Shown: piece after piece, positions 12,145 to 21,030 of the stretch
How the letters are laid out: each line of letters starts with the position of its first letter
Position numbering within the stretch: the stretch's first letter is position 1
UHGV virus genome: UHGV-0073881
Direction: 5' to 3' (one strand)
Length of the DNA stretch: 64,000 nt
Source: a virus
Position numbers and translations under genes: made by a program
The notes under the pieces: generated by a model
The model's database searches: none
Told to the model about the DNA's origin: nothing
Seen by the model: the letters and a program-made list of their open reading frames with translations, nothing else

Positions 12145-12785
12145 TGAAATCCCCTGTAACAAGAATGTCAGGGTACGTTACTGAGTGTTTGGATGAATTT
12201 AAAAAGGAACTCTACACTGGTTTACCAGCTATTATTGTTTCCTATGATGCTAAAACACAATCTGCAACGGTAAGGCCATTATATTCTATTGATGGTCTTC
12301 CAATGCCAGAGATTACAGGTGTTCCAGTTCAGTTCCCTAGTGGTGGTGGAGCATCTTTAACGTTCCCTGTAAAGACAAATGACAGATGCTGGTTAGCATT
12401 CTCTATGCTTCCACTTGATGACTATGTAGTTAATGACAAGAACGTACAGATGGAAACAAATCTAAGAAGAACACATGATATGACTGACTGTGTAGCTTTT
12501 GTAGGTATCTGTACAAGAACTCAGAACTTTAATCCTGACCCAACAGCAGTCAGATTACACTACGGAGATTCAGTATTAAGAATCACTGATGATGGTAATT
12601 TTTGGTTCACTGGTGATGTTCATATTTCTAAGAATCTTTACGTTGAAGAAGATGTAATTGCCAAAGGTGAAGTTCATGGTTCAGATTTTGTCAGTGATAC
12701 TACAGGTGTTAGTTTCAATGAGCATAACCACCATTATTACTGGACTGACGGTGGCGGTGAAGCTGATACAACAGAGGCACAATAA
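12144..12785 (+). CDS. baseplate spike protein (gpV-like)
   Basis: 213-aa ORF upstream of a gpW-sized ORF and a J-like ORF; synteny with P2/Mu baseplates. Confidence 0.45.
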
Positions 12786-14673: not shown

Positions 14674-15531
14674 ATGTTACAAAAAATTGACAACATCTAT
14701 GAAAAGACGTTGGACGAGAGAACTGTAACACAATTCAAAGACAAGTTTATTTACACAAGTCTATTGAAATCTATCACAGATGAGTTACAATTGATTGAGG
14801 ATATTAGTTTTCAGTTATACACTGAACGTAATATTCGTACAGGTGTAGGCCAGCAATTAGATAACATTGGGGCTTTGATTAAAGTCCCTAGACCTATTGG
14901 TGCTACAGATGAAGCTTACAGAGCTATCCTATATATCCAAATCTTTCTAAGACGTTCTGACACAACTCCAACGTTTCTTCAAAGAGCTATTATGACTCTT
15001 TACAATGCTACGTTCAGTCAAATCTTTGAGCATATTACTCCTATGACTGGCGGTATTGTTATAAGAGTTAATACCAGAAACAACGTTGTAGATACAGCAT
15101 ACACACTTTCAAAGATTGCTGCAACAACTATTGGTTCAGCAGTTATCTTGAGAGATGTGACTTTGAATGGTACTGCATGGACACCTGTAGAGGTTGCTGA
15201 CTCAGCTTTAGCAATCACTGATGACAAGAATAGCTGGTTCGTTACAGATAACAACAAAGGTCTTGTAACAAACAACACAGGTGGCTCTCTTGAGGCAAAC
15301 TTACTAGGAAGTTTAGCAGATGCTGGTGTAAAGGATGGCTACATGAGGGTTGATAAAACTGGTGGGAGTACCAGTAAAGACTACTTCAAAGTCTCTAAGA
15401 CAGCAAACGGTAATGACTATTTCATTGCTGGTAAAGAAACAGTCGCAGGTGGTGATTACGGTGTAATGGCTGAGGTTGCACAAATCATCAAAGGCAGAAA
15501 AGATAAATCCCAACAAGAAGGAAGTTCATAA
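14674..15531 (+). CDS. baseplate wedge / tail fibre attachment protein (gpI-like)
   Basis: 285-aa ORF following the J-like gene. Confidence 0.4.
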
Positions 15532-15833
15532 TGGCAGATTTAAATTGGGCTACAGGCTCAGTAGATGCTGATGGTAACCAGCTTAAAGTATTACCACCAC
15601 CAGAAGTTCAAGCAACTGGCCTTTTAAGGGGTGAACCTATGGGCCGTCAGTGGTTTAACTATATCTTAAACTACCTTCTGGTAAAAGTAAACGGGACGGT
15701 AGGTGAAGTCAAATCTTTTGCCACTGAACAACCTGATTTAGTTGAAAGTGGTTGGACGCTTATTAAAACAGAAACAGGTACTGCAACAACATCGACAACA
15801 AACCTATACACATATGAATATGTAGGGAGCTAA
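15531..15833 (+). CDS. hypothetical tail protein
   Basis: 100-aa ORF coupled to neighbours, directly upstream of the fibre genes. Confidence 0.4.
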
Positions 15834-15835
15834 TA

Positions 15836-17044
15836 ATGGCAGTTGGTGAAATTCAAATTAGTGCATTACCTCAAGCCTCTCTACCAATCGGGCTTAGTGA
15901 TATTTTTCACTTGAAGCAGGGTATTGAGGATAAAAGGTGTACACTAGAGCAATTACTTGCTCCACACGCATCTTTAAAGAATAACCCACACGAAGTTACA
16001 AAAAATCAGGTTGGTTTGAGTAGTGTTATTAACGCACTCCAATTAGTTGCTGCTAATAACTTGTCAGATGTTGTTAATGTTCAGGAAGCAAGAGCAAACT
16101 TAGGAATCCTTTCAAGTGACCAAGTTAATGCTCTTATTCAGACTCACATTGATGACAAGAATAACCCTCACAATACTACGAAGGGTCAAGTTGGATTAGG
16201 TAACCTCCAGAACTGGACATACTCCAATTCATACTCTGAAGATGCTGACAAATATGCTACAGCAAGGGCTGTAAACGCACTGTACAGGGCTATTCAGAAT
16301 AGTTACCCGATTGGTTCTATTCACCTGACTGTGAACCCTGCAAACCCCACTACGTACCTTCTTTGTGGGGGTACTTGGGAACTTGTCTCTAAAGGTAGAG
16401 CACTTGTAGGTTATGATACAGATTCCAGACCAGTTGATTCAACATTTGGTAGTCAGAATGTGACATTGAACAGTAACCACTTACCTGCTCACAGCCACTC
16501 AATTTACCTAACTGGTGGTACTCACAAGCATGGTAATAGTGTTTCTGTATCAAGCTTTGACTACGGAACAAGAACTACAAGTGGTTTTGACTATGGCACA
16601 AAGGCTACTAGTGGTTTTGACTATGGAAGCAAATCAACGACTCCATTTGATTATGGAAACAAATCTACGGATTATAGTGGCGACCATACCCATACGATTC
16701 CAGATTTTCCTGCTTATGAATGGAAAAATGCCACCGACAATGGTCGTTACAGAATGGGGATTAACACTAGAGATGGGGTAACAGGCTCATCCGGGAATCA
16801 CGCGCATACAGTCTATATTGGTGCTCATAGCCATTCTGTGTATATCGGTGCTCACAACCACACACTTGATATCGGTGCTCACAACCATACTTTGGCAATT
16901 GGTGCTCACACACATACAGTAACTGTAGACATTGAAGATGCTGACCATACACACTCTGGTACAACTGGTAACACTGGTAGTGGACAAGCTTTTAGTGTGG
17001 AGCAACCTTCCTATGTAGTTTACATCTGGAAGAGAGTAGCTTAA
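15836..17044 (+). CDS. tail fibre protein with His-x-His repeat tip
   Basis: 402 aa; N-terminal repeated KNNPH..TK.QVGL motif; four decapeptide repeats of the form xFDYGxxxTx; C-terminal IGAH-x-H-T repeats (GAHSHSVYIGAHNHTLDIGAHNHTLAIGAHTHT). Confidence 0.65.
   Translation: MAVGEIQISALPQASLPIGLSDIFHLKQGIEDKRCTLEQLLAPHASLKNNPHEVTKNQVGLSSVINALQLVAANNLSDVVNVQEARANLGILSSDQVNALIQTHIDDKNNPHNTTKGQVGLGNLQNWTYSNSYSEDADKYATARAVNALYRAIQNSYPIGSIHLTVNPANPTTYLLCGGTWELVSKGRALVGYDTDSRPVDSTFGSQNVTLNSNHLPAHSHSIYLTGGTHKHGNSVSVSSFDYGTRTTSGFDYGTKATSGFDYGSKSTTPFDYGNKSTDYSGDHTHTIPDFPAYEWKNATDNGRYRMGINTRDGVTGSSGNHAHTVYIGAHSHSVYIGAHNHTLDIGAHNHTLAIGAHTHTVTVDIEDADHTHSGTTGNTGSGQAFSVEQPSYVVYIWKRVA
16550..16925 (+). repeat. 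in-frame tandem repeats in the fibre gene (30-nt FDYG units and 27-nt GAH-x-H units)
   Basis: near-identical nucleotide units repeated about 4 times each, visible directly in the sequence. Confidence 0.7.
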
Positions 17045-17090
17045 TTATTTTTAAGGGGGCTGTAAAGCCCTCTATTAAGAGGATTGATAA

Positions 17091-19439
17091 ATGGCTGAAT
17101 ACAAACTAAGTGAACTAAACAGTATTGATACAGTTCGCTCAGACGACCTATTACATTTGAGAGTTATTAAAAGACCTGAAATGTTAGGTGACGAAGACCG
17201 TAAAATTACTTACGCAAATTTTCTAGCCTCATTTAGACTTGAAAGATTCCTGCAATTATCTGGTGGAACTATGACAGGTAATTTGGGAATTGTGAAGTTA
17301 ACTTACGGTGGAAAAGATTTATTTGACCCTACAAATTCTTCTGAAATTTCTATTGGGGATACTGCAAAGACTTTTAAAGTTAATGCAAATGGTCTTGCTT
17401 TAAAAGTTGCCGATGCAACAAGAACTGCATTTGTTTATCACACTCTGAATAAACCAAGCCCAGCAGATTTGGGTATGAGAACAAATGCTGAAAATGATGC
17501 AAGATATGCTATTAAGAATGCAGATAACACCTTTGCAGCTAGGCAGATTGTTAATATCAACGGTGCTGGTATTACCCTGAAAAGTATCTTCCCAGATGCT
17601 GGAGCATATTTTGAAGCAAGAGACTCTAACAATGCTTTGAGATTTACTGTAGGTAACTTGGATGCAAGTTCAGATGTTACTTTAGTAAATAGCAAGGGTG
17701 CTAAGTTGACTCTTGGGACAAACGCTGTTAGTGTTGATAAGGATTTTGCAATTACTGGTCAAGTATTACCAAGTGATTTGTCTAACTTCGATGCAAGATA
17801 CTACACTCAGAATGCTGCTGACCAGAGATTTGCAAGACTGACTGCAAATAACACCTTCTCAGGTACTAACAATTTCACAAACTATCAGACAATCACTTCT
17901 GATGGGGCTTTGCTGAGATTGAAGCCAGCTACAGCAAATGGTGCAGTGTTTGTTCAAGCTTATGCAGGTTCTGGCTCAGAGTCTTGGTATCTTGGTCAAC
18001 CTGACGGGACTAAGCAGGATGTTAACTTGTTTAACCAGATGACAGGTGCAACTATGAGACTCTCTACAGAGTTCTTCTTCAGTAAAGCACTAAACGTTAC
18101 TGGACAGGTTAAGCCAAGTGACTACAACAACTTTGACTCAAGATACCTGCCAGCTTCTTTAGGTAGCACACTTGCTAGGACTAACTCTGCAAATACTTTT
18201 AATGGTATTCAGACTATCCTATCTGATGAAACTCCGCTTCTACTGAAGAATAATACACTTAATGCACCATTGTATATTTCAGGGATTAATGCAAACAACA
18301 TTAGAAGATGGTATCTTGGTAATGGAGACCGTTACAATCCAGAATCCCTATTTTTGTCTAATGACACAACAGGTGCAGCGATTGTATTAAGTAACACCAT
18401 TAATATGACTAAGACCATTAATGTTACTGGTCAGGTTCAACCAAGTGATTTGTCTAACTTTGATGCAAGATACTTCTTAAAAGGTTATTTCATTGGTCAA
18501 TCAGTTATGACAAGAACGGTCAATGCTCTTGACAAACCAAACACTTTTGACATTAACTACGCAGGGTTTGTGAGAGCAAATGGTATGATTGATGGGTTAG
18601 GCTCTTTAGCTATTCATGTTCCACACTCTGCTGGTTGTGAGCATGGTAGAGGCATTAGTTTTGACTATGGAAGTGTGGGTTCGGGTCTTGGTCTAGGCAC
18701 ATATGCCTATGATGCAAGTGGTAATTACCGTGGTTCAGCAGAAATCTACACAACTGCCAGAAAACCAACAACTGCGGAGTTAGGTGTGTACAGTAAAGCA
18801 GAAACTGACCAGAGAATTGCAACAGCTATCACAAACTCAACAGACCTAAACAAGATTTACCCTGTAGGTATGGTTACACTGTTTGCTTCTAATGTCAACC
18901 CTAACGTAGCCTTTGCAGGAACTACTTGGGCTTACTTGGCAAATGGACAGTTTAGAACTATCCGTATTGCATCGTCAACTGGTGAAGATGTTGGTTCGGT
19001 TGGTGGTTCAGATACTAAGAGTATTGCCGTTGGGCATCTTCCAAACCACACGCACAGTTTCTCAGGTACTGTATCGACATTTGACCACGGAACAATTGGT
19101 ACTTCACTAAACGGTTGGCATGGTCACTCTGTGAGTGGCTCTACTGCTGCTGCTGGTGCTCACAACCACACATCATTTGCACTTGGTTGGCAGAAGGGAT
19201 GGGGTTTCCCAGCCGGTAACCAGAACATGGGTGAGTATGCAAAACCAACGTCAACTAATGGTGAACACGCTCACTCATTCTCCGGCACTGCTGCTGGCGA
19301 TGGTAACCACACTCACACTGTTCCAGTTGGTGCTCACAACCATACTTTCAGTGGTAACACTGGTGGTACGGGTTCTGGTTCAGCATTTGACGTTACTAAC
19401 GCATTCATTAAATTGATGGCATGGGTTAGAACTGCGTAA
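17091..19439 (+). CDS. long tail fibre protein
   Basis: 782 aa; three ~110-aa internal repeats marked by NVTGQV.PSD.(S/N)NFD(A/S)RY; C-terminus carries H-x-H motifs (GAHNHT, GEHAHSF, GNHTHTV) and ends like the 402-aa fibre. Confidence 0.7.
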   Translation: MAEYKLSELNSIDTVRSDDLLHLRVIKRPEMLGDEDRKITYANFLASFRLERFLQLSGGTMTGNLGIVKLTYGGKDLFDPTNSSEISIGDTAKTFKVNANGLALKVADATRTAFVYHTLNKPSPADLGMRTNAENDARYAIKNADNTFAARQIVNINGAGITLKSIFPDAGAYFEARDSNNALRFTVGNLDASSDVTLVNSKGAKLTLGTNAVSVDKDFAITGQVLPSDLSNFDARYYTQNAADQRFARLTANNTFSGTNNFTNYQTITSDGALLRLKPATANGAVFVQAYAGSGSESWYLGQPDGTKQDVNLFNQMTGATMRLSTEFFFSKALNVTGQVKPSDYNNFDSRYLPASLGSTLARTNSANTFNGIQTILSDETPLLLKNNTLNAPLYISGINANNIRRWYLGNGDRYNPESLFLSNDTTGAAIVLSNTINMTKTINVTGQVQPSDLSNFDARYFLKGYFIGQSVMTRTVNALDKPNTFDINYAGFVRANGMIDGLGSLAIHVPHSAGCEHGRGISFDYGSVGSGLGLGTYAYDASGNYRGSAEIYTTARKPTTAELGVYSKAETDQRIATAITNSTDLNKIYPVGMVTLFASNVNPNVAFAGTTWAYLANGQFRTIRIASSTGEDVGSVGGSDTKSIAVGHLPNHTHSFSGTVSTFDHGTIGTSLNGWHGHSVSGSTAAAGAHNHTSFALGWQKGWGFPAGNQNMGEYAKPTSTNGEHAHSFSGTAAGDGNHTHTVPVGAHNHTFSGNTGGTGSGSAFDVTNAFIKLMAWVRTA

Positions 19440-19447
19440 TCAACTTA

Positions 19448-19476
19448 TTGACTAATTGTTAAGATGGTGTTAATAT
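19448..19476 (+). promoter_or_regulatory. sigma70-like promoter candidate (TTGACT-N17-TAATAT)
   Basis: hexamers with 17-nt spacing in the gap between the fibre gene and the ORF at 19526; a 9-bp inverted repeat AAGATGGTG/CACCATCTT overlaps it. Confidence 0.4.
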
Positions 19477-19525
19477 TTCTTAGTAGGTATTCTCACCATC
19501 TTGGCTTAAGAAGTAAGGTGATTAA

Positions 19526-19720
19526 ATGCCAACTATCCTAGCAATCCTCTTAAAAAACCTTGGGGCATTCTTCTGGAAGCTTGCACTTTCTCTTCTAAGT
19601 GAATACATGATTGAAAAAGCATTCTTCAGACTTGCAAGATACCTTGCGAGTAAGACTGATACGCCTATCGACGATGAATTTGTAGATAACTTGGAAAAAG
19701 CTTTTAAAGGTGAGAAATAA
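19526..19720 (+). CDS. small membrane protein (holin-like candidate)
   Basis: 64 aa with one hydrophobic helix and a charged C-terminus; located after the fibre genes. Confidence 0.35.
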   Translation: MPTILAILLKNLGAFFWKLALSLLSEYMIEKAFFRLARYLASKTDTPIDDEFVDNLEKAFKGEK

Positions 19721-20094
19721 TGAAGTGGTTAGAAGATGCTTTCAAGAATAATATCGGTGCAATTGTTGTAGGTATTTTCAGTGTAATTGGGATGTACACT
19801 ACAATGCAGGTCTCTGACGGAAAGCAAGAAGTTTCTATCAACACAAAGTTACAACAGTTGGATAGTTACTCAAAAGGTAACTATTCATCTATTCGTGATT
19901 TGCAGTCTGATATGAGACTTCTTCAGTTAGGTATGGAGAACCAGAAGGTACAGCTAGAGAACGTTAAGGGGGAAAACGCTAAGTTGACCAAAACCCTTGA
20001 TAAATTCTCAGATAGTGTGAACAACTTAGCACAGTCTGTATCAGCTTTACAAGCAATTACCGAACAAAATACACAAAGCACTAAGAAAAAATAA
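19720..20094 (+). CDS. membrane-anchored coiled-coil protein
   Basis: 124 aa; N-terminal TM segment IGAIVVGIFSVIGMY followed by a heptad-like Q/L-rich region; ATGA overlap with upstream ORF. Confidence 0.35.
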   Translation: MKWLEDAFKNNIGAIVVGIFSVIGMYTTMQVSDGKQEVSINTKLQQLDSYSKGNYSSIRDLQSDMRLLQLGMENQKVQLENVKGENAKLTKTLDKFSDSVNNLAQSVSALQAITEQNTQSTKKK

Positions 20095-20100
20095 TGTTAA

Positions 20101-20125
20101 GGCTCCCGTAAAAAGGAGCCTTTTT
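20101..20125. terminator. bidirectional stem-loop terminator between convergent transcription units
   Basis: GGCTCC-loop-GGAGCC followed by TTTTT; lies between the + strand ORF ending at 20094 and the - strand ORF ending at 20131. Confidence 0.6.
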
Positions 20126-20130
20126 CTTAT

Positions 20131-21030
20131 CTACTTACCAACTGACAAGGGAGCTTCAATCTTCCCTGCATGACGGTAATCTTTCAAGCCACCTATGAAG
20201 TCACTTGCAGTTTTATGTTTAATGTCTTCAAGGCATTTCAAGTCTTGAACAATCTCAAATTTAGGTGCTGGAAACTCTTCATTACCTAGCAACTGGAAAA
20301 CCTGAGACATATGGTTTTGATAAATTTGAGTATCCCCAAAAGTGCCTACCAAGTATCTTGGAGTGTACCCTGTCATCTTACACAGAACATGCAAAATAAA
20401 ACCATATGATGCAATATTAAATGGTAAACCTAAGAAGGTGTCACATGACCTTTGATACCATTTCAAATCCATCTCTCCAGTATTCGAAACATAAATCTGG
20501 AAAAGAACATGACAAGGTGCTAATGCCATAGAACCACTTGCAATATCTGCTGCATTCCAAGCATTAACCAGCATGTAACGGTCTGTAGGAGACTTTTTAA
20601 CCTTATCAATAAGAATGTCTAACTGGTCAACTACAACGCCACCATGACCTTCTGAAGCCCTCCACTGGACACCATAGATTCGTCCACCTGCATCTTCCAG
20701 CCAATCCTTCTCAGTCGCATAAGAAGTCTTCAACCAACGCTTGAAGTCATCTGTCCAGATAGTCCAACGTTCTCCGTCATTCTCTCCCCAAGTTCTGTAT
20801 CGAAGAGTTCCAAGGGTGTTTTCACCATTTAAGAACCAAAGTGCTTCCCCAATTACCTGACGCATGAAGGTTTGCTTTGAAGTGATTAATGGGAATCCAG
20901 AACGCATATCAAAGCGAAACTCTGGTGGAGCAAAGGTGGTAACAACTTTACCAGTTCGTGTATCACGCTGCTCACCGACTGTTAAAACATGGTTCAAAAT
21001 ATTCTTGTAACTTACATCTGCTTGTGACAT
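20131..21030 (-). CDS. thyA: thymidylate synthase
   Basis: 299 aa with ThyA hallmarks including the active-site PCH context (ALAPCHVLFQ) and conserved C-terminal region. Confidence 0.9.
   Translation of the reverse strand: MSQADVSYKNILNHVLTVGEQRDTRTGKVVTTFAPPEFRFDMRSGFPLITSKQTFMRQVIGEALWFLNGENTLGTLRYRTWGENDGERWTIWTDDFKRWLKTSYATEKDWLEDAGGRIYGVQWRASEGHGGVVVDQLDILIDKVKKSPTDRYMLVNAWNAADIASGSMALAPCHVLFQIYVSNTGEMDLKWYQRSCDTFLGLPFNIASYGFILHVLCKMTGYTPRYLVGTFGDTQIYQNHMSQVFQLLGNEEFPAPKFEIVQDLKCLEDIKHKTASDFIGGLKDYRHAGKIEAPLSVGK

Follow-up and report, generated by a model that had tools for sequence, protein, structure and literature searches.

Within a 64,000-nt window of the virus genome UHGV-0073881, two neighboring genes encode tail fiber proteins of 402 and 782 amino acids, both with clustered His-x-His (HxH) motifs near the C-terminus and, in the shorter one, with tandem peptide repeats as well. 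What does this histidine-rich region do, and how does it vary? The original prediction described a metal-binding receptor-binding module at the fiber tip whose repeats might change rapidly by slippage or by recombination between the two genes. Our analysis leads to a related but different answer: very probably, both genes encode trimeric ounavirus fibers with tips of the T4 gp37 type, in which the histidines form a metal-ladder needle, a separate head binds the receptor, and specificity changes through module exchange.

The two genes and their phage

Over 25 kb, the window has 94% DNA identity to Escherichia phage pEC-M719-6WT.1 and 85-86% to HP1 and Moogle, of the genus Mooglevirus. The structural module around the fibers resembles those of classified members of the Ounavirinae at the nucleotide level, and the source phage is a Felix-O1-like (Mooglevirus-type) ounavirus. 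The order of ORFs (489, 285, 100, 402 and 782 aa) matches wedge 2, wedge 1, fiber platform, short fiber and long fiber, with the 100-aa gene being assigned to the platform by position only; the layout of these five genes is identical in HP1 and pEC-M719-6WT.1. In Bas63, wedge 2 and wedge 1 are 489 and 285 aa long (PMC12609058). We refer to the 402-aa protein, for which an identical public entry exists (DAJ98446.1), as the short tail fiber (STF) and to the 782-aa protein as the long tail fiber (LTF). Their orthologues in Bas63 are gp26 (STF) and gp27 (LTF), and in Sf14 gp52 (STF) and gp53 (LTF). Upstream of its tip LTF matches the Pfam gp37_trimer family three times (E = 7e-41), corresponding to repeated rod domains like those of gp34 and gp37; its middle contains a separate variable domain. 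Table 1 gives the positions of both genes and of the segments into which we divide their tips. A scan of positions 15400-20200 found promoters and terminators at near-chance frequencies (12 vs 10.6 and 4 vs 3.2 expected in shuffles, respectively), the only convincing site being a bidirectional hairpin at 20099-20122.

Table 1. Fiber genes and tip segments in the 64-kb window, with the evidence for each.
Feature	Position	Strand	Evidence
Short tail fiber (STF) gene	15836..17044	+	ORF, 402 aa; phrog_2097 tail fibre, E = 4e-126
STF collar domain, N-terminal part (aa 140-218)	16253..16489	+	Gp10_C; phmmer to T4 gp10/gp37; AlphaFold2 pLDDT 82-95
STF descending needle strand (aa 219-286)	16490..16693	+	HxH at aa 219, 230, 284; four FDYG decapeptides
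STF head, hypervariable insert TIPDFPAYEWKNATDNGRYRMGINTRDGVTGSSGN (aa 287-321)	16694..16798	+	Aligns to T4 gp37 tip subdomain 932-959
STF ascending needle strand (aa 322-373)	16799..16954	+	HxH at aa 322, 331, 340, 349, 358, 371; four IGAHxHxxx
STF C-terminal segment completing collar (aa 374-402)	16955..17041	+	Gp10_C profile to 139/139; T4 homology; pLDDT 83-94
Long tail fiber (LTF) gene	17091..19439	+	ORF, 782 aa; phrog_4277 spans aa 1-782
LTF collar domain, N-terminal part (aa 587-652)	18849..19046	+	Gp10_C; alignment with STF and T4 gp37
LTF descending needle strand (aa 653-693)	19047..19169	+	HxH at aa 653, 677, 691; FDHG at aa 664
LTF head insert (aa 694-725)	19170..19265	+	Bounds from alignment and stem-length analysis
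LTF ascending needle strand (aa 726-751)	19266..19343	+	HxH at aa 726, 740, 749
LTF C-terminal segment returning to collar (aa 752-782)	19344..19436	+	Alignments with STF and T4 gp37; Gp10_C profile

Repeats and histidine motifs

STF contains nine HxH motifs and two short tandem arrays: four decapeptides of the form xFDYGxxxTx (aa 241-280, nt 16556-16675), just as had been predicted, and four IGAHxHxxx nonapeptides (aa 328-363, nt 16817-16924). These nonapeptides had been thought to end the protein, but 39 non-repeat residues follow the last of them. LTF contains six HxH motifs (nt 19047-19343) and a single FDHG unit. Tandem Repeats Finder recovers the first STF array with period 30 (2.6 copies, 83% matches) and the second with period 27 (3.8 copies, 76% matches). 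The 27-nt units are not near-identical as originally described, agreeing pairwise at 18-21 of 27 bases (67-78%); for the 30-nt units the figure is 19-24 of 30, and the longest exact repeat inside the STF gene is 19 nt. The HxH excess is not due to chance: 20,000 residue shuffles of STF gave 1.5 +/- 1.2 motifs and never reached nine, and LTF has six motifs against 0.44 in shuffles. In a set of 54 orthologues, each motif histidine is either invariant or conserved in more than 90% of the sequences.

No Pfam family matched the FDYG segment on its own. The Phage tail fibre repeat family (PF03335), a 14-aa HxH unit, corresponds to the HxH unit rather than to the FDYG unit; it scores 41.3 bits on the T4 gp37 tip, but stays below its gathering threshold of 20 bits for both the STF ascending strand (13.4) and the LTF tip (19.4).

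Homology to the T4 gp37 tip

When STF was searched against the PDB with phmmer, the best match was the T4 gp37 tip (2XGF, E = 1.1e-15; STF aa 146-366 vs chain residues 18-222), followed by T4 gp10, for which the aligned region covers only the collar part (STF aa 77-229). The Pfam family Gp10_C (PF21939) matches both fibers above threshold, at STF aa 155-401 (E = 2e-17) and LTF aa 587-736, and the C-terminal 65 residues of STF match the end of this profile. The two fibers are also related to each other, confirming that they carry a common HxH tip module: a BLASTP alignment of their C-terminal parts has 273 columns with 29% identity (E = 7e-9) and extends to the final residues, GNTGSGQAFSVEQPSYVVYIWKRVA in one and GNTGGTGSGSAFDVTNAFIKLMAWVRTA in the other.

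In a three-way alignment, six of the seven T4 HxH motifs (at 883, 915, 929, 966, 980, 989 and 998) are matched in each fiber, each lacking one site. H219 and H284 of STF correspond to T4 H883 and H929, with an FDYG unit occupying the place of T4 H915, and H322, H340, H349 and H358 pair with T4 H966, H980, H989 and H998. In LTF, the motifs at aa 653, 677 and 691 pair with T4 H883, H915 and H929, and those at aa 726, 740 and 749 with T4 H966, H980 and H989. Three additional STF motifs, at aa 230, 331 and 371, have no counterpart in T4 gp37 or in a solved structure.

In T4 gp37, the collar domain D10 comprises residues 811-881 and 1010-1026 with the needle inserted between them, and the needle holds seven irons coordinated by buried histidines; the substitutions H929A and H931A abolish plaque formation, and the receptor-contact residues lie in the tip subdomain (PMC6957217). 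The HxH motifs of both our fibers align to these iron sites, and the histidine ladder is therefore best understood as a structural needle.

This alters the meaning of the originally proposed metal-binding receptor-binding module. Its first half stands, in that the HxH motifs are homologous to the gp37 metal ladder; its second half does not, as the ladder forms the stem and receptor binding would be placed in the head. The 782-aa fiber does have the predicted related HxH segment and similar final ~20 residues, but because the C-terminus folds back to the collar, those residues would not lie at the tip in space.

Structure predictions

AlphaFold2 models of single chains were confident only in part. 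For full-length STF (54-sequence alignment) the mean pLDDT was 61 and the pTM 0.24; for aa 140-402 (69-sequence alignment) the mean pLDDT was 66, with the collar alone being confidently predicted. Needle and head stayed below pLDDT 50, and a single chain cannot represent an intertwined trimer. In the fragment model, the N-terminal part of the collar and the C-terminal strand together form one confident domain. This agrees with the span of the Gp10_C match and with the co-variation of stem lengths described below: the collar is split by insertion of the needle, and the chain turns back at the head. Foldseek searches of the PDB with both models gave no match at E <= 0.001, and 2XGF was not among the structures retrieved; the top matches were weak ones to T4 gp10 chains (E = 5e-3, probability 0.95-0.98), a further likeness to the collar fold that gp10, gp11 and gp12 have in common (PMC6957217).

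A model for the needle

In the architecture that we favor, a long hairpin would interrupt the collar domain of each chain. Its descending strand would carry a few HxH motifs and the xFDYGxxxTx units, a head insert of ~35 aa would make the hairpin turn, the ascending strand would bear the IGAHxHxxx units, and the final 25-30 residues would rejoin the collar. In the presumed trimer, six strands would combine into the needle, and the three chains would direct their HxH motifs inward so that at every level six histidines hold one metal ion, which is iron in T4. Nine such sites are predicted for STF, the longest class observed, and six for LTF. The metal ladder would stiffen the needle and keep it in register, and the head, at the needle's far end, would contact the host receptor. 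By analogy with T4, aa 287-321 of STF are the likely receptor-binding surface, and by homology aa 694-725 are the likely receptor-binding part of LTF. Specificity would shift when the head, or the entire needle-plus-head module, is swapped between phages.

The lengths of the two strands fit a hairpin. Over 16 architecture classes, descending and ascending stem lengths are correlated (Spearman 0.87), and among 71 orthologues the counts of FDYG and [IVL]GxHxH units co-vary (classes 0/1, 2/2, 3/3 and 4/4; rho = 0.92). For the stem lengths the head was located with the FDYG units masked, since the longest HxH-free gap alone misplaced it in the class with four FDYG units. We propose that the 10-aa and 9-aa arrays cover a similar span on opposite strands. 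A fixed antiparallel register between them was considered and set aside, as sequence alone cannot set it.

An extended version of this model, based on correlations, seems to us somewhat doubtful. It would have the needle built of paired "rungs", the conserved DNA encoding the histidine motifs at both needle ends acting as junctions for the exchange of needle-plus-head cassettes among ounaviruses and even with T4-like and P2-like phages, and the fibers folding without a gp38-type chaperone. In each rung, a descending unit (FDYG-type or HxH-bearing) may pair with an ascending one (IGAHxH-type or a spacer), so that needle length would change in paired steps only. The correlations in question are those of unit counts and stem lengths, together with the HP1-like LTF block and the T4-like heads described below and the outcome of a chaperone search. 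That histidine motifs serve as recombination junctions was reportedly proposed long ago for T4, by Tetart et al. in 1996 and 1998. As for folding, tblastn searches of the window with T4 gp38 and the assembly protein of phage ESSI2 found no chaperone homologue (best E = 0.47), and the two ORFs downstream of the fibers matched no chaperone family. Unlike T4, then, this phage has no gp38-type chaperone gene adjoining the fibers or elsewhere in the 64-kb window, so folding may differ from that in T4. Chaperone homologues were likewise not found in Sf14 (PMC11821841).

The identity of the metal leaves some room for an alternative that we regard as unlikely, namely that the HxH sites hold zinc or another metal instead of iron, or that only part of the nine STF motifs are occupied. 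A metal cannot be identified from sequence, and the T4 short tail fiber gp12, one of the proteins with the common collar fold, is reported to have zinc at HxH sites. The three STF motifs without a gp37 counterpart also leave scope for partial occupancy. Iron is nevertheless favored: of all homologues with a solved structure, gp37 with its iron-binding needle scores highest, the six aligned motifs of each fiber fall on iron sites, and the authors of the Bas63 study likewise read the motifs by analogy with iron (PMC12609058).

Cassette exchange versus slippage

How the tips differ among phages bears on the mechanism of variation. The STF head is only 25-28% identical to those of its closest relatives, whereas its flanks are 65-100% identical; P0002 is 87% identical to STF overall but has an unrelated head. 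No close match to the STF head was found in the phage collection, the best (50% identity) being in the fiber of a P2-like phage. The LTF head is nearly identical in HP1 but different in pEC-M719-6WT.1. At the DNA level, the LTF needle-plus-head region is 96% identical to that of HP1 vs ~84% in the flank, and the 297-nt block between the first and last HxH motifs is 3.7% divergent vs 16.2% upstream. Two other ounavirus short fibers have a head like that of T4 gp37, with 36 of 45 residues identical. In this mosaic pattern, what varies is either the tip module as a whole or just its head cassette, passed from one phage to another, and not repeat number changed by slippage.

We consider it quite improbable that the two STF arrays are instead a contingency locus, in which repeat number, and with it host range, is often altered by slippage or by unequal recombination inside either fiber gene or from one to the other. 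Lineages do differ in repeat number (2+2, 3+3 and 4+4), and T4 host-range mutants described by Tetart in 1996 are said to carry duplications in the same histidine-motif tip region. Within lineages, however, the number is stable. Among the listed members of seven 90%-identity clusters, 93 of 98 keep the fiber length of their cluster, with a constant HxH count in those 93. The five exceptions include one with an internal repeat change, the database protein P0205 from Salmonella phage vB_SenM-pSJ21, in which 41 residues (123 nt) of the ascending strand are duplicated in tandem; the other four are 127, 291 and 372 aa long. The original prediction had called for a comparison of repeat number across hosts. 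One cluster includes phages from three host species, Citrobacter freundii, C. braakii and Shigella dysenteriae, and all the fibers in it are 402 aa long with nine HxH motifs. Proteins with as little as 60% identity still show the 4+4 arrangement. The repeat units are only 67-80% alike in DNA, which speaks against rapid slippage, and the hairpin would need a matched change in two separate arrays.

The idea of recombination between the two fiber genes fares no better. A 20-nt exact word does occur in both (at 16874 and 19329), but exact shared words are no longer than this, and there is no wider DNA similarity beyond short motif-coding words. We rejected this word as a sign of gene conversion: it encodes GAHNHT, a peptide common to the two proteins, and is the longest stretch that the genes share.

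The contrast between conserved motifs and variable head also speaks against a proposal, implicit in the original prediction and in our judgment highly improbable, that the ladder itself binds the receptor, for instance in contacts with lipopolysaccharide that depend on metal or charge, instead of forming an internal core. In its favor, surfaces rich in histidine are able to bind metals as well as phosphates. Regions that determine specificity are expected to vary, as the head does, whereas no columns of the tip are more conserved than the HxH motifs; in T4 the histidines bind buried iron and the receptor contacts lie in the tip subdomain (PMC6957217). That the repeats are low-complexity sequence arising from composition or chance, with no specific role, has nothing but their simple look in its favor and is practically negligible given the shuffles, the histidines conserved in 54 orthologues and the significant homology to a solved structure.

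Relation to other fibers and implications

In both T4 gp37 and our preferred model, a hairpin interrupts the collar, running down to the head and back up, with FDYG units in the descending strand, IGxHxH units in the ascending one and a similar C-terminal return strand. The dimensions differ. The STF stem (68 and 81 residues for its two strands) is longer than that of T4 (49 and 61) by 19-20 residues per strand, and STF has nine HxH motifs and 4+4 repeat units where T4 has two plus two or three; LTF has six motifs and a shorter stem (41 and 57). The head sequences are unrelated to that of T4, and the ounavirus tip is carried on much shorter fibers attached directly to a Mu-like baseplate.

Closer to hand, Bas63 (Felixounavirus) and Sf14 (Mooglevirus) belong to the same subfamily and have the same gene order and wedge gene lengths. 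Both the short and the long fibers of Bas63 have gp37-like tips with collar, HxH needle and head, where the chain reverses its direction (PMC12609058), and the longer fiber of Sf14 has a gp37-like distal tip (PMC11821841). The long fibers of Bas63 and our phage agree in having six HxH motifs, but the Bas63 short fiber is reported to have seven di-histidine motifs vs nine in STF, which falls in the 4+4-repeat class of Moogle and HP1. A similar needle (54% identical over 116 aa), with FDYG-type units followed by IGAHxH units, is found in the fiber of the P2-like Escherichia phage ESSI2_ev040 (Peduoviridae). That fiber differs in its N-terminus (Phage_tail_fib, PF12571) and its T4-like end, and a Caudo_TAP assembly chaperone gene follows it. 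The Collar family PF07484 matches it and T4 gp37 but is absent from both fibers described here.

For T4, both this architecture and what the metal does in it were already established, and cryo-EM studies of Bas63 and Sf14 described such tips for ounavirus fibers in 2025, so our finding, although correct, is an ordinary one and leaves current understanding unchanged. Its use is mainly practical. For annotation, receptor-binding determinants can be placed at the two head inserts, STF aa 287-321 and LTF aa 694-725. For host-range engineering, the histidine ladder would be treated as a scaffold to be kept intact, and the matched lengths of the needle strands provide a simple design constraint for chimeric fibers.

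The phage and its fibre genes

Judged by its sequence, the window belongs to an ounavirus (a Felix-O1-like myovirus), with a first 25 kb that is 94% identical to Escherichia phage pEC-M719-6WT.1 and 85-86% identical to the Citrobacter phages HP1 and Moogle (genus Mooglevirus). Upstream of the two adjoining fibre genes, ORFs of 489 and 285 aa agree in length with the proteins that cryo-EM work on the Felixounavirus Bas63 names wedge 2 and wedge 1, and a 100-aa ORF, assigned by place, occupies the position of the Bas63 long-fibre platform; in Bas63, the platform gene is followed by the short fibre gp26 and then the long fibre gp27 (PMC12609058). The 402-aa protein is already public in identical form (DAJ98446.1, "MAG TPA: structural protein").

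Features of the fibre region and of the central spike gene
Feature	Residues	Nucleotides	Strand	Remark
Central spike, 213 aa		12144-12785	+	
HxH of central spike	194/196	12723-12731	+	C-terminal, …NEHNHHYYW…
Short fibre ORF, 402 aa		15836-17044	+	adjoins long-fibre ORF
NNPHxxTKxQVGL, two copies	49-61 and 109-121	15980-16020 and 16160-16200		N-terminal half of short fibre
Four FDYG decapeptides	241-280	16556-16675	+	short fibre
Four IGAHxHxxx nonapeptides	328-363	16817-16924	+	short fibre
Long fibre ORF, 782 aa		17091-19439	+	adjoins short-fibre ORF
Hypervariable module	~445-565	~18420-18780		mid long fibre, upstream of collar
Six HxH motifs		19047-19343	+	long fibre; plus one FDHG unit
Two small conserved ORFs, 64 and 124 aa		19526-19720 and 19720-20094	+	3′ of long-fibre gene
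GC-rich hairpin		20099-20122		T-runs on both strands

The 64-aa and 124-aa ORFs sit where T4 and P2-like phages have a fibre chaperone gene. Their only matches are to phrog_402 and phrog_4038, families without a known function, and the second ORF is a putative holin in the HP1 annotation; no gp38 / Caudo_TAP chaperone homologue was found anywhere within the 64-kb window. The hairpin between the convergent 124-aa and thymidylate synthase genes looks like a bidirectional terminator.

Both fibres end in a tip related to that of T4 gp37

The original prediction of two fibres with FDYG and IGAHxH repeats, HxH (His-x-His)-rich segments and related ends was mostly right. The short fibre has nine HxH motifs (1.5 expected from residue shuffles) and the long fibre six (0.44 expected), an excess far beyond chance, since 0 of 20,000 shuffles attained either count, and the C-terminal regions of the two align with 29% identity (E = 7e-9), final residues included. 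Tandem Repeats Finder detects both arrays of the short fibre, but to call its 27-nt units near-identical was an overstatement: they have only 18-21 of 27 bases in common (19-24 of 30 for the 30-nt units), and the longest exact internal repeat in the gene is 19 nt.

In a phmmer search of all PDB sequences with the short fibre, the best match was the T4 gp37 tip (2XGF, E = 1.1e-15), followed by T4 gp10; in Pfam, Gp10_C was found in both fibres and gp37_trimer three times in the long fibre. A three-way alignment of gp37 residues 785-1026 (from the T4 record) with both tips pairs the T4 motifs at 883, 929, 966, 980 and 989 with those at 219, 284, 322, 340 and 349 of the short fibre and 653, 691, 726, 740 and 749 of the long fibre, respectively. 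T4 915 corresponds to long-fibre 677, with an FDYG unit in its place in the short fibre, and T4 998 to short-fibre 358, with none in the long fibre; three further short-fibre motifs (aa 230, 331 and 371) are without T4 counterpart.

In gp37, the needle (D11) is inserted into the collar (D10, residues 811-881 plus 1010-1026) and holds seven iron atoms along its length; changing H929 or H931 to alanine abolishes plaque formation, and the receptor-contact residues lie within tip subdomain 932-959 (PMC6957217). That subdomain aligns with short-fibre aa 287-321 and long-fibre aa 694-725. The proposed metal binding by the HxH motifs holds by homology; the receptor-binding role, by analogy with T4, would belong to the head insert and not to the His ladder. 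In both monomer structure prediction runs the needle and head were of low confidence, with only weak gp10 fold matches, so trimer geometry, metal occupancy and metal identity rest on homology.

The region of the two NNPHxxTKxQVGL copies (DNA 73% identical across 41 nt) matches the PDB chain "short tail fiber gp92" (9zd7, E = 0.008). The central spike is a third HxH-bearing protein of the same tail; its motif coincides in residue numbering with H194/H196, which bind iron in the tail needle gp47 of Sf14, a Mooglevirus (PMC11821841).

The repeat arrays lie on the two strands of one hairpin

The two arrays are explained by hairpin topology: the FDYG decapeptides belong to the descending strand, and the IGAHxH nonapeptides to the ascending strand, of one and the same hairpin. 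In T4 gp37, too, TDLG and FDYG make up two such units on the descending side, and the returning side has IGAHTH / IGSHGH. Among 71 short-fibre orthologues, FDYG and IGxHxH counts rise and fall together, the classes being 0/1, 2/2, 3/3 and 4/4 (Spearman rho 0.92, for related sequences that are not an independent sample). Over 16 distinct architecture classes, which take in T4 gp37, a P2-like fibre and long fibres, the descending and ascending stems lengthen jointly (Spearman 0.87), the shortest pair being 41/57 and the longest 68/81 residues; most classes have a head of ~31-42 residues. At 68/81, the window's short fibre belongs to the longest class; T4 has 49/61 and the window's long fibre 41/57. 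Nine HxH motifs are found in 49 of 76 proteins, that is, in most ounavirus short fibres; they are split between the strands 3+6 in the window and 4+5 in the commonest ounavirus type.

Repeat number hardly varies within clusters, and tips appear to be exchanged between phages

Copy-number instability has left almost no sign in the 98 members listed for seven clusters at 90% identity. In 93, fibre length is exactly the cluster's own and the HxH count is constant, FDYG or IGxHxH regex counts differing in six, by substitution; one cluster comprises C. freundii, C. braakii and S. dysenteriae phages, each with a fibre of 402 aa. Slippage as a source of host-range variation is therefore unsupported. 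One of the five deviants is P0205 (Salmonella phage vB_SenM-pSJ21, 429 aa), in which, by comparison with the 388-aa short fibres of Felix O1 type, 41 aa of the ascending needle strand and C-terminal segment are exactly duplicated in tandem; the duplication is either real or an assembly artefact. The other four (127, 291 and 372 aa) may be truncations or have another start site. Two proteins in the cluster of the Felixounavirus short fibre P0014 (P0191 and P0195) carry the database title "phage baseplate protein [Methanobrevibacter gottschalkii]"; their source, an 88,424-bp contig, has the look of a coliphage genome that contaminated the assembly of an archaeon.

Recombination between the two fibre genes is equally unsupported, as their DNA is similar only in words of at most 20 nt that encode the motifs. 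The longest, GGTGCTCACAACCATACTTT (16874-16893 and 19329-19348), encodes GAHNHT plus two bases and was judged to reflect common peptide and codon use.

Between phages, the short-fibre tip has been replaced as a whole: relative to pEC-M719-6WT.1, identity is 97-100% up to ~16170, drops to 32-80% over 16260-16980 and is 99% again from 17071. At protein level, the head is 25-28% identical to that of either relative, its best match among sequenced phages is only 50% identical, and in the short fibre P0002 the head is unrelated despite 87% identity overall. In the long fibre, divergence from HP1 is 3.7% of positions between the first and last HxH (19047-19343), as against 16.2% in the collar just upstream (Fisher p = 6e-7) and 13-20% in the rest of the genome, which points to recent exchange of a needle-plus-head block that has its junctions in or close to the His motifs. 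Such conserved motifs ("His box") were reportedly described by Tetart et al. (1996, 1998) as mediators of duplication and exchange within T4 gene 37.

Two long-fibre blocks (17971-18420 and 19047-19343) share 93-98% identity with HP1, a phage of Citrobacter braakii, in a backbone only 80-87% identical to HP1 and 94% to the E. coli phage, so the fibre genes are a patchwork of at least two lineages. The mid-long-fibre module, a second hypervariable one, is only 12-50% identical to both HP1 and pEC-M719-6WT.1 (flanks 85-100%) and is 59 aa longer in HP1; it matches phrog_20472 (unknown function) and, weakly and below threshold, CBM_3, and may be an additional binding domain.

Two ounavirus short fibres of 391 aa (P0040 and P0043) have a head, YIEAWNGTGVGG…, with 32-36 of 45 residues identical to T4 gp37, in a tip 70% identical to T4 as a whole, which indicates that ounaviruses and T4-like phages have exchanged cassettes. 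A P2-like phage fibre has a needle with 54% identity to that of the window's short fibre.

Both fibres belong to an already well-described kind of tip. [quoted passage not shown] What the window's short fibre adds is modest: a nine-site needle with 4+4 repeats, and a head that has no close match in sequenced phages.
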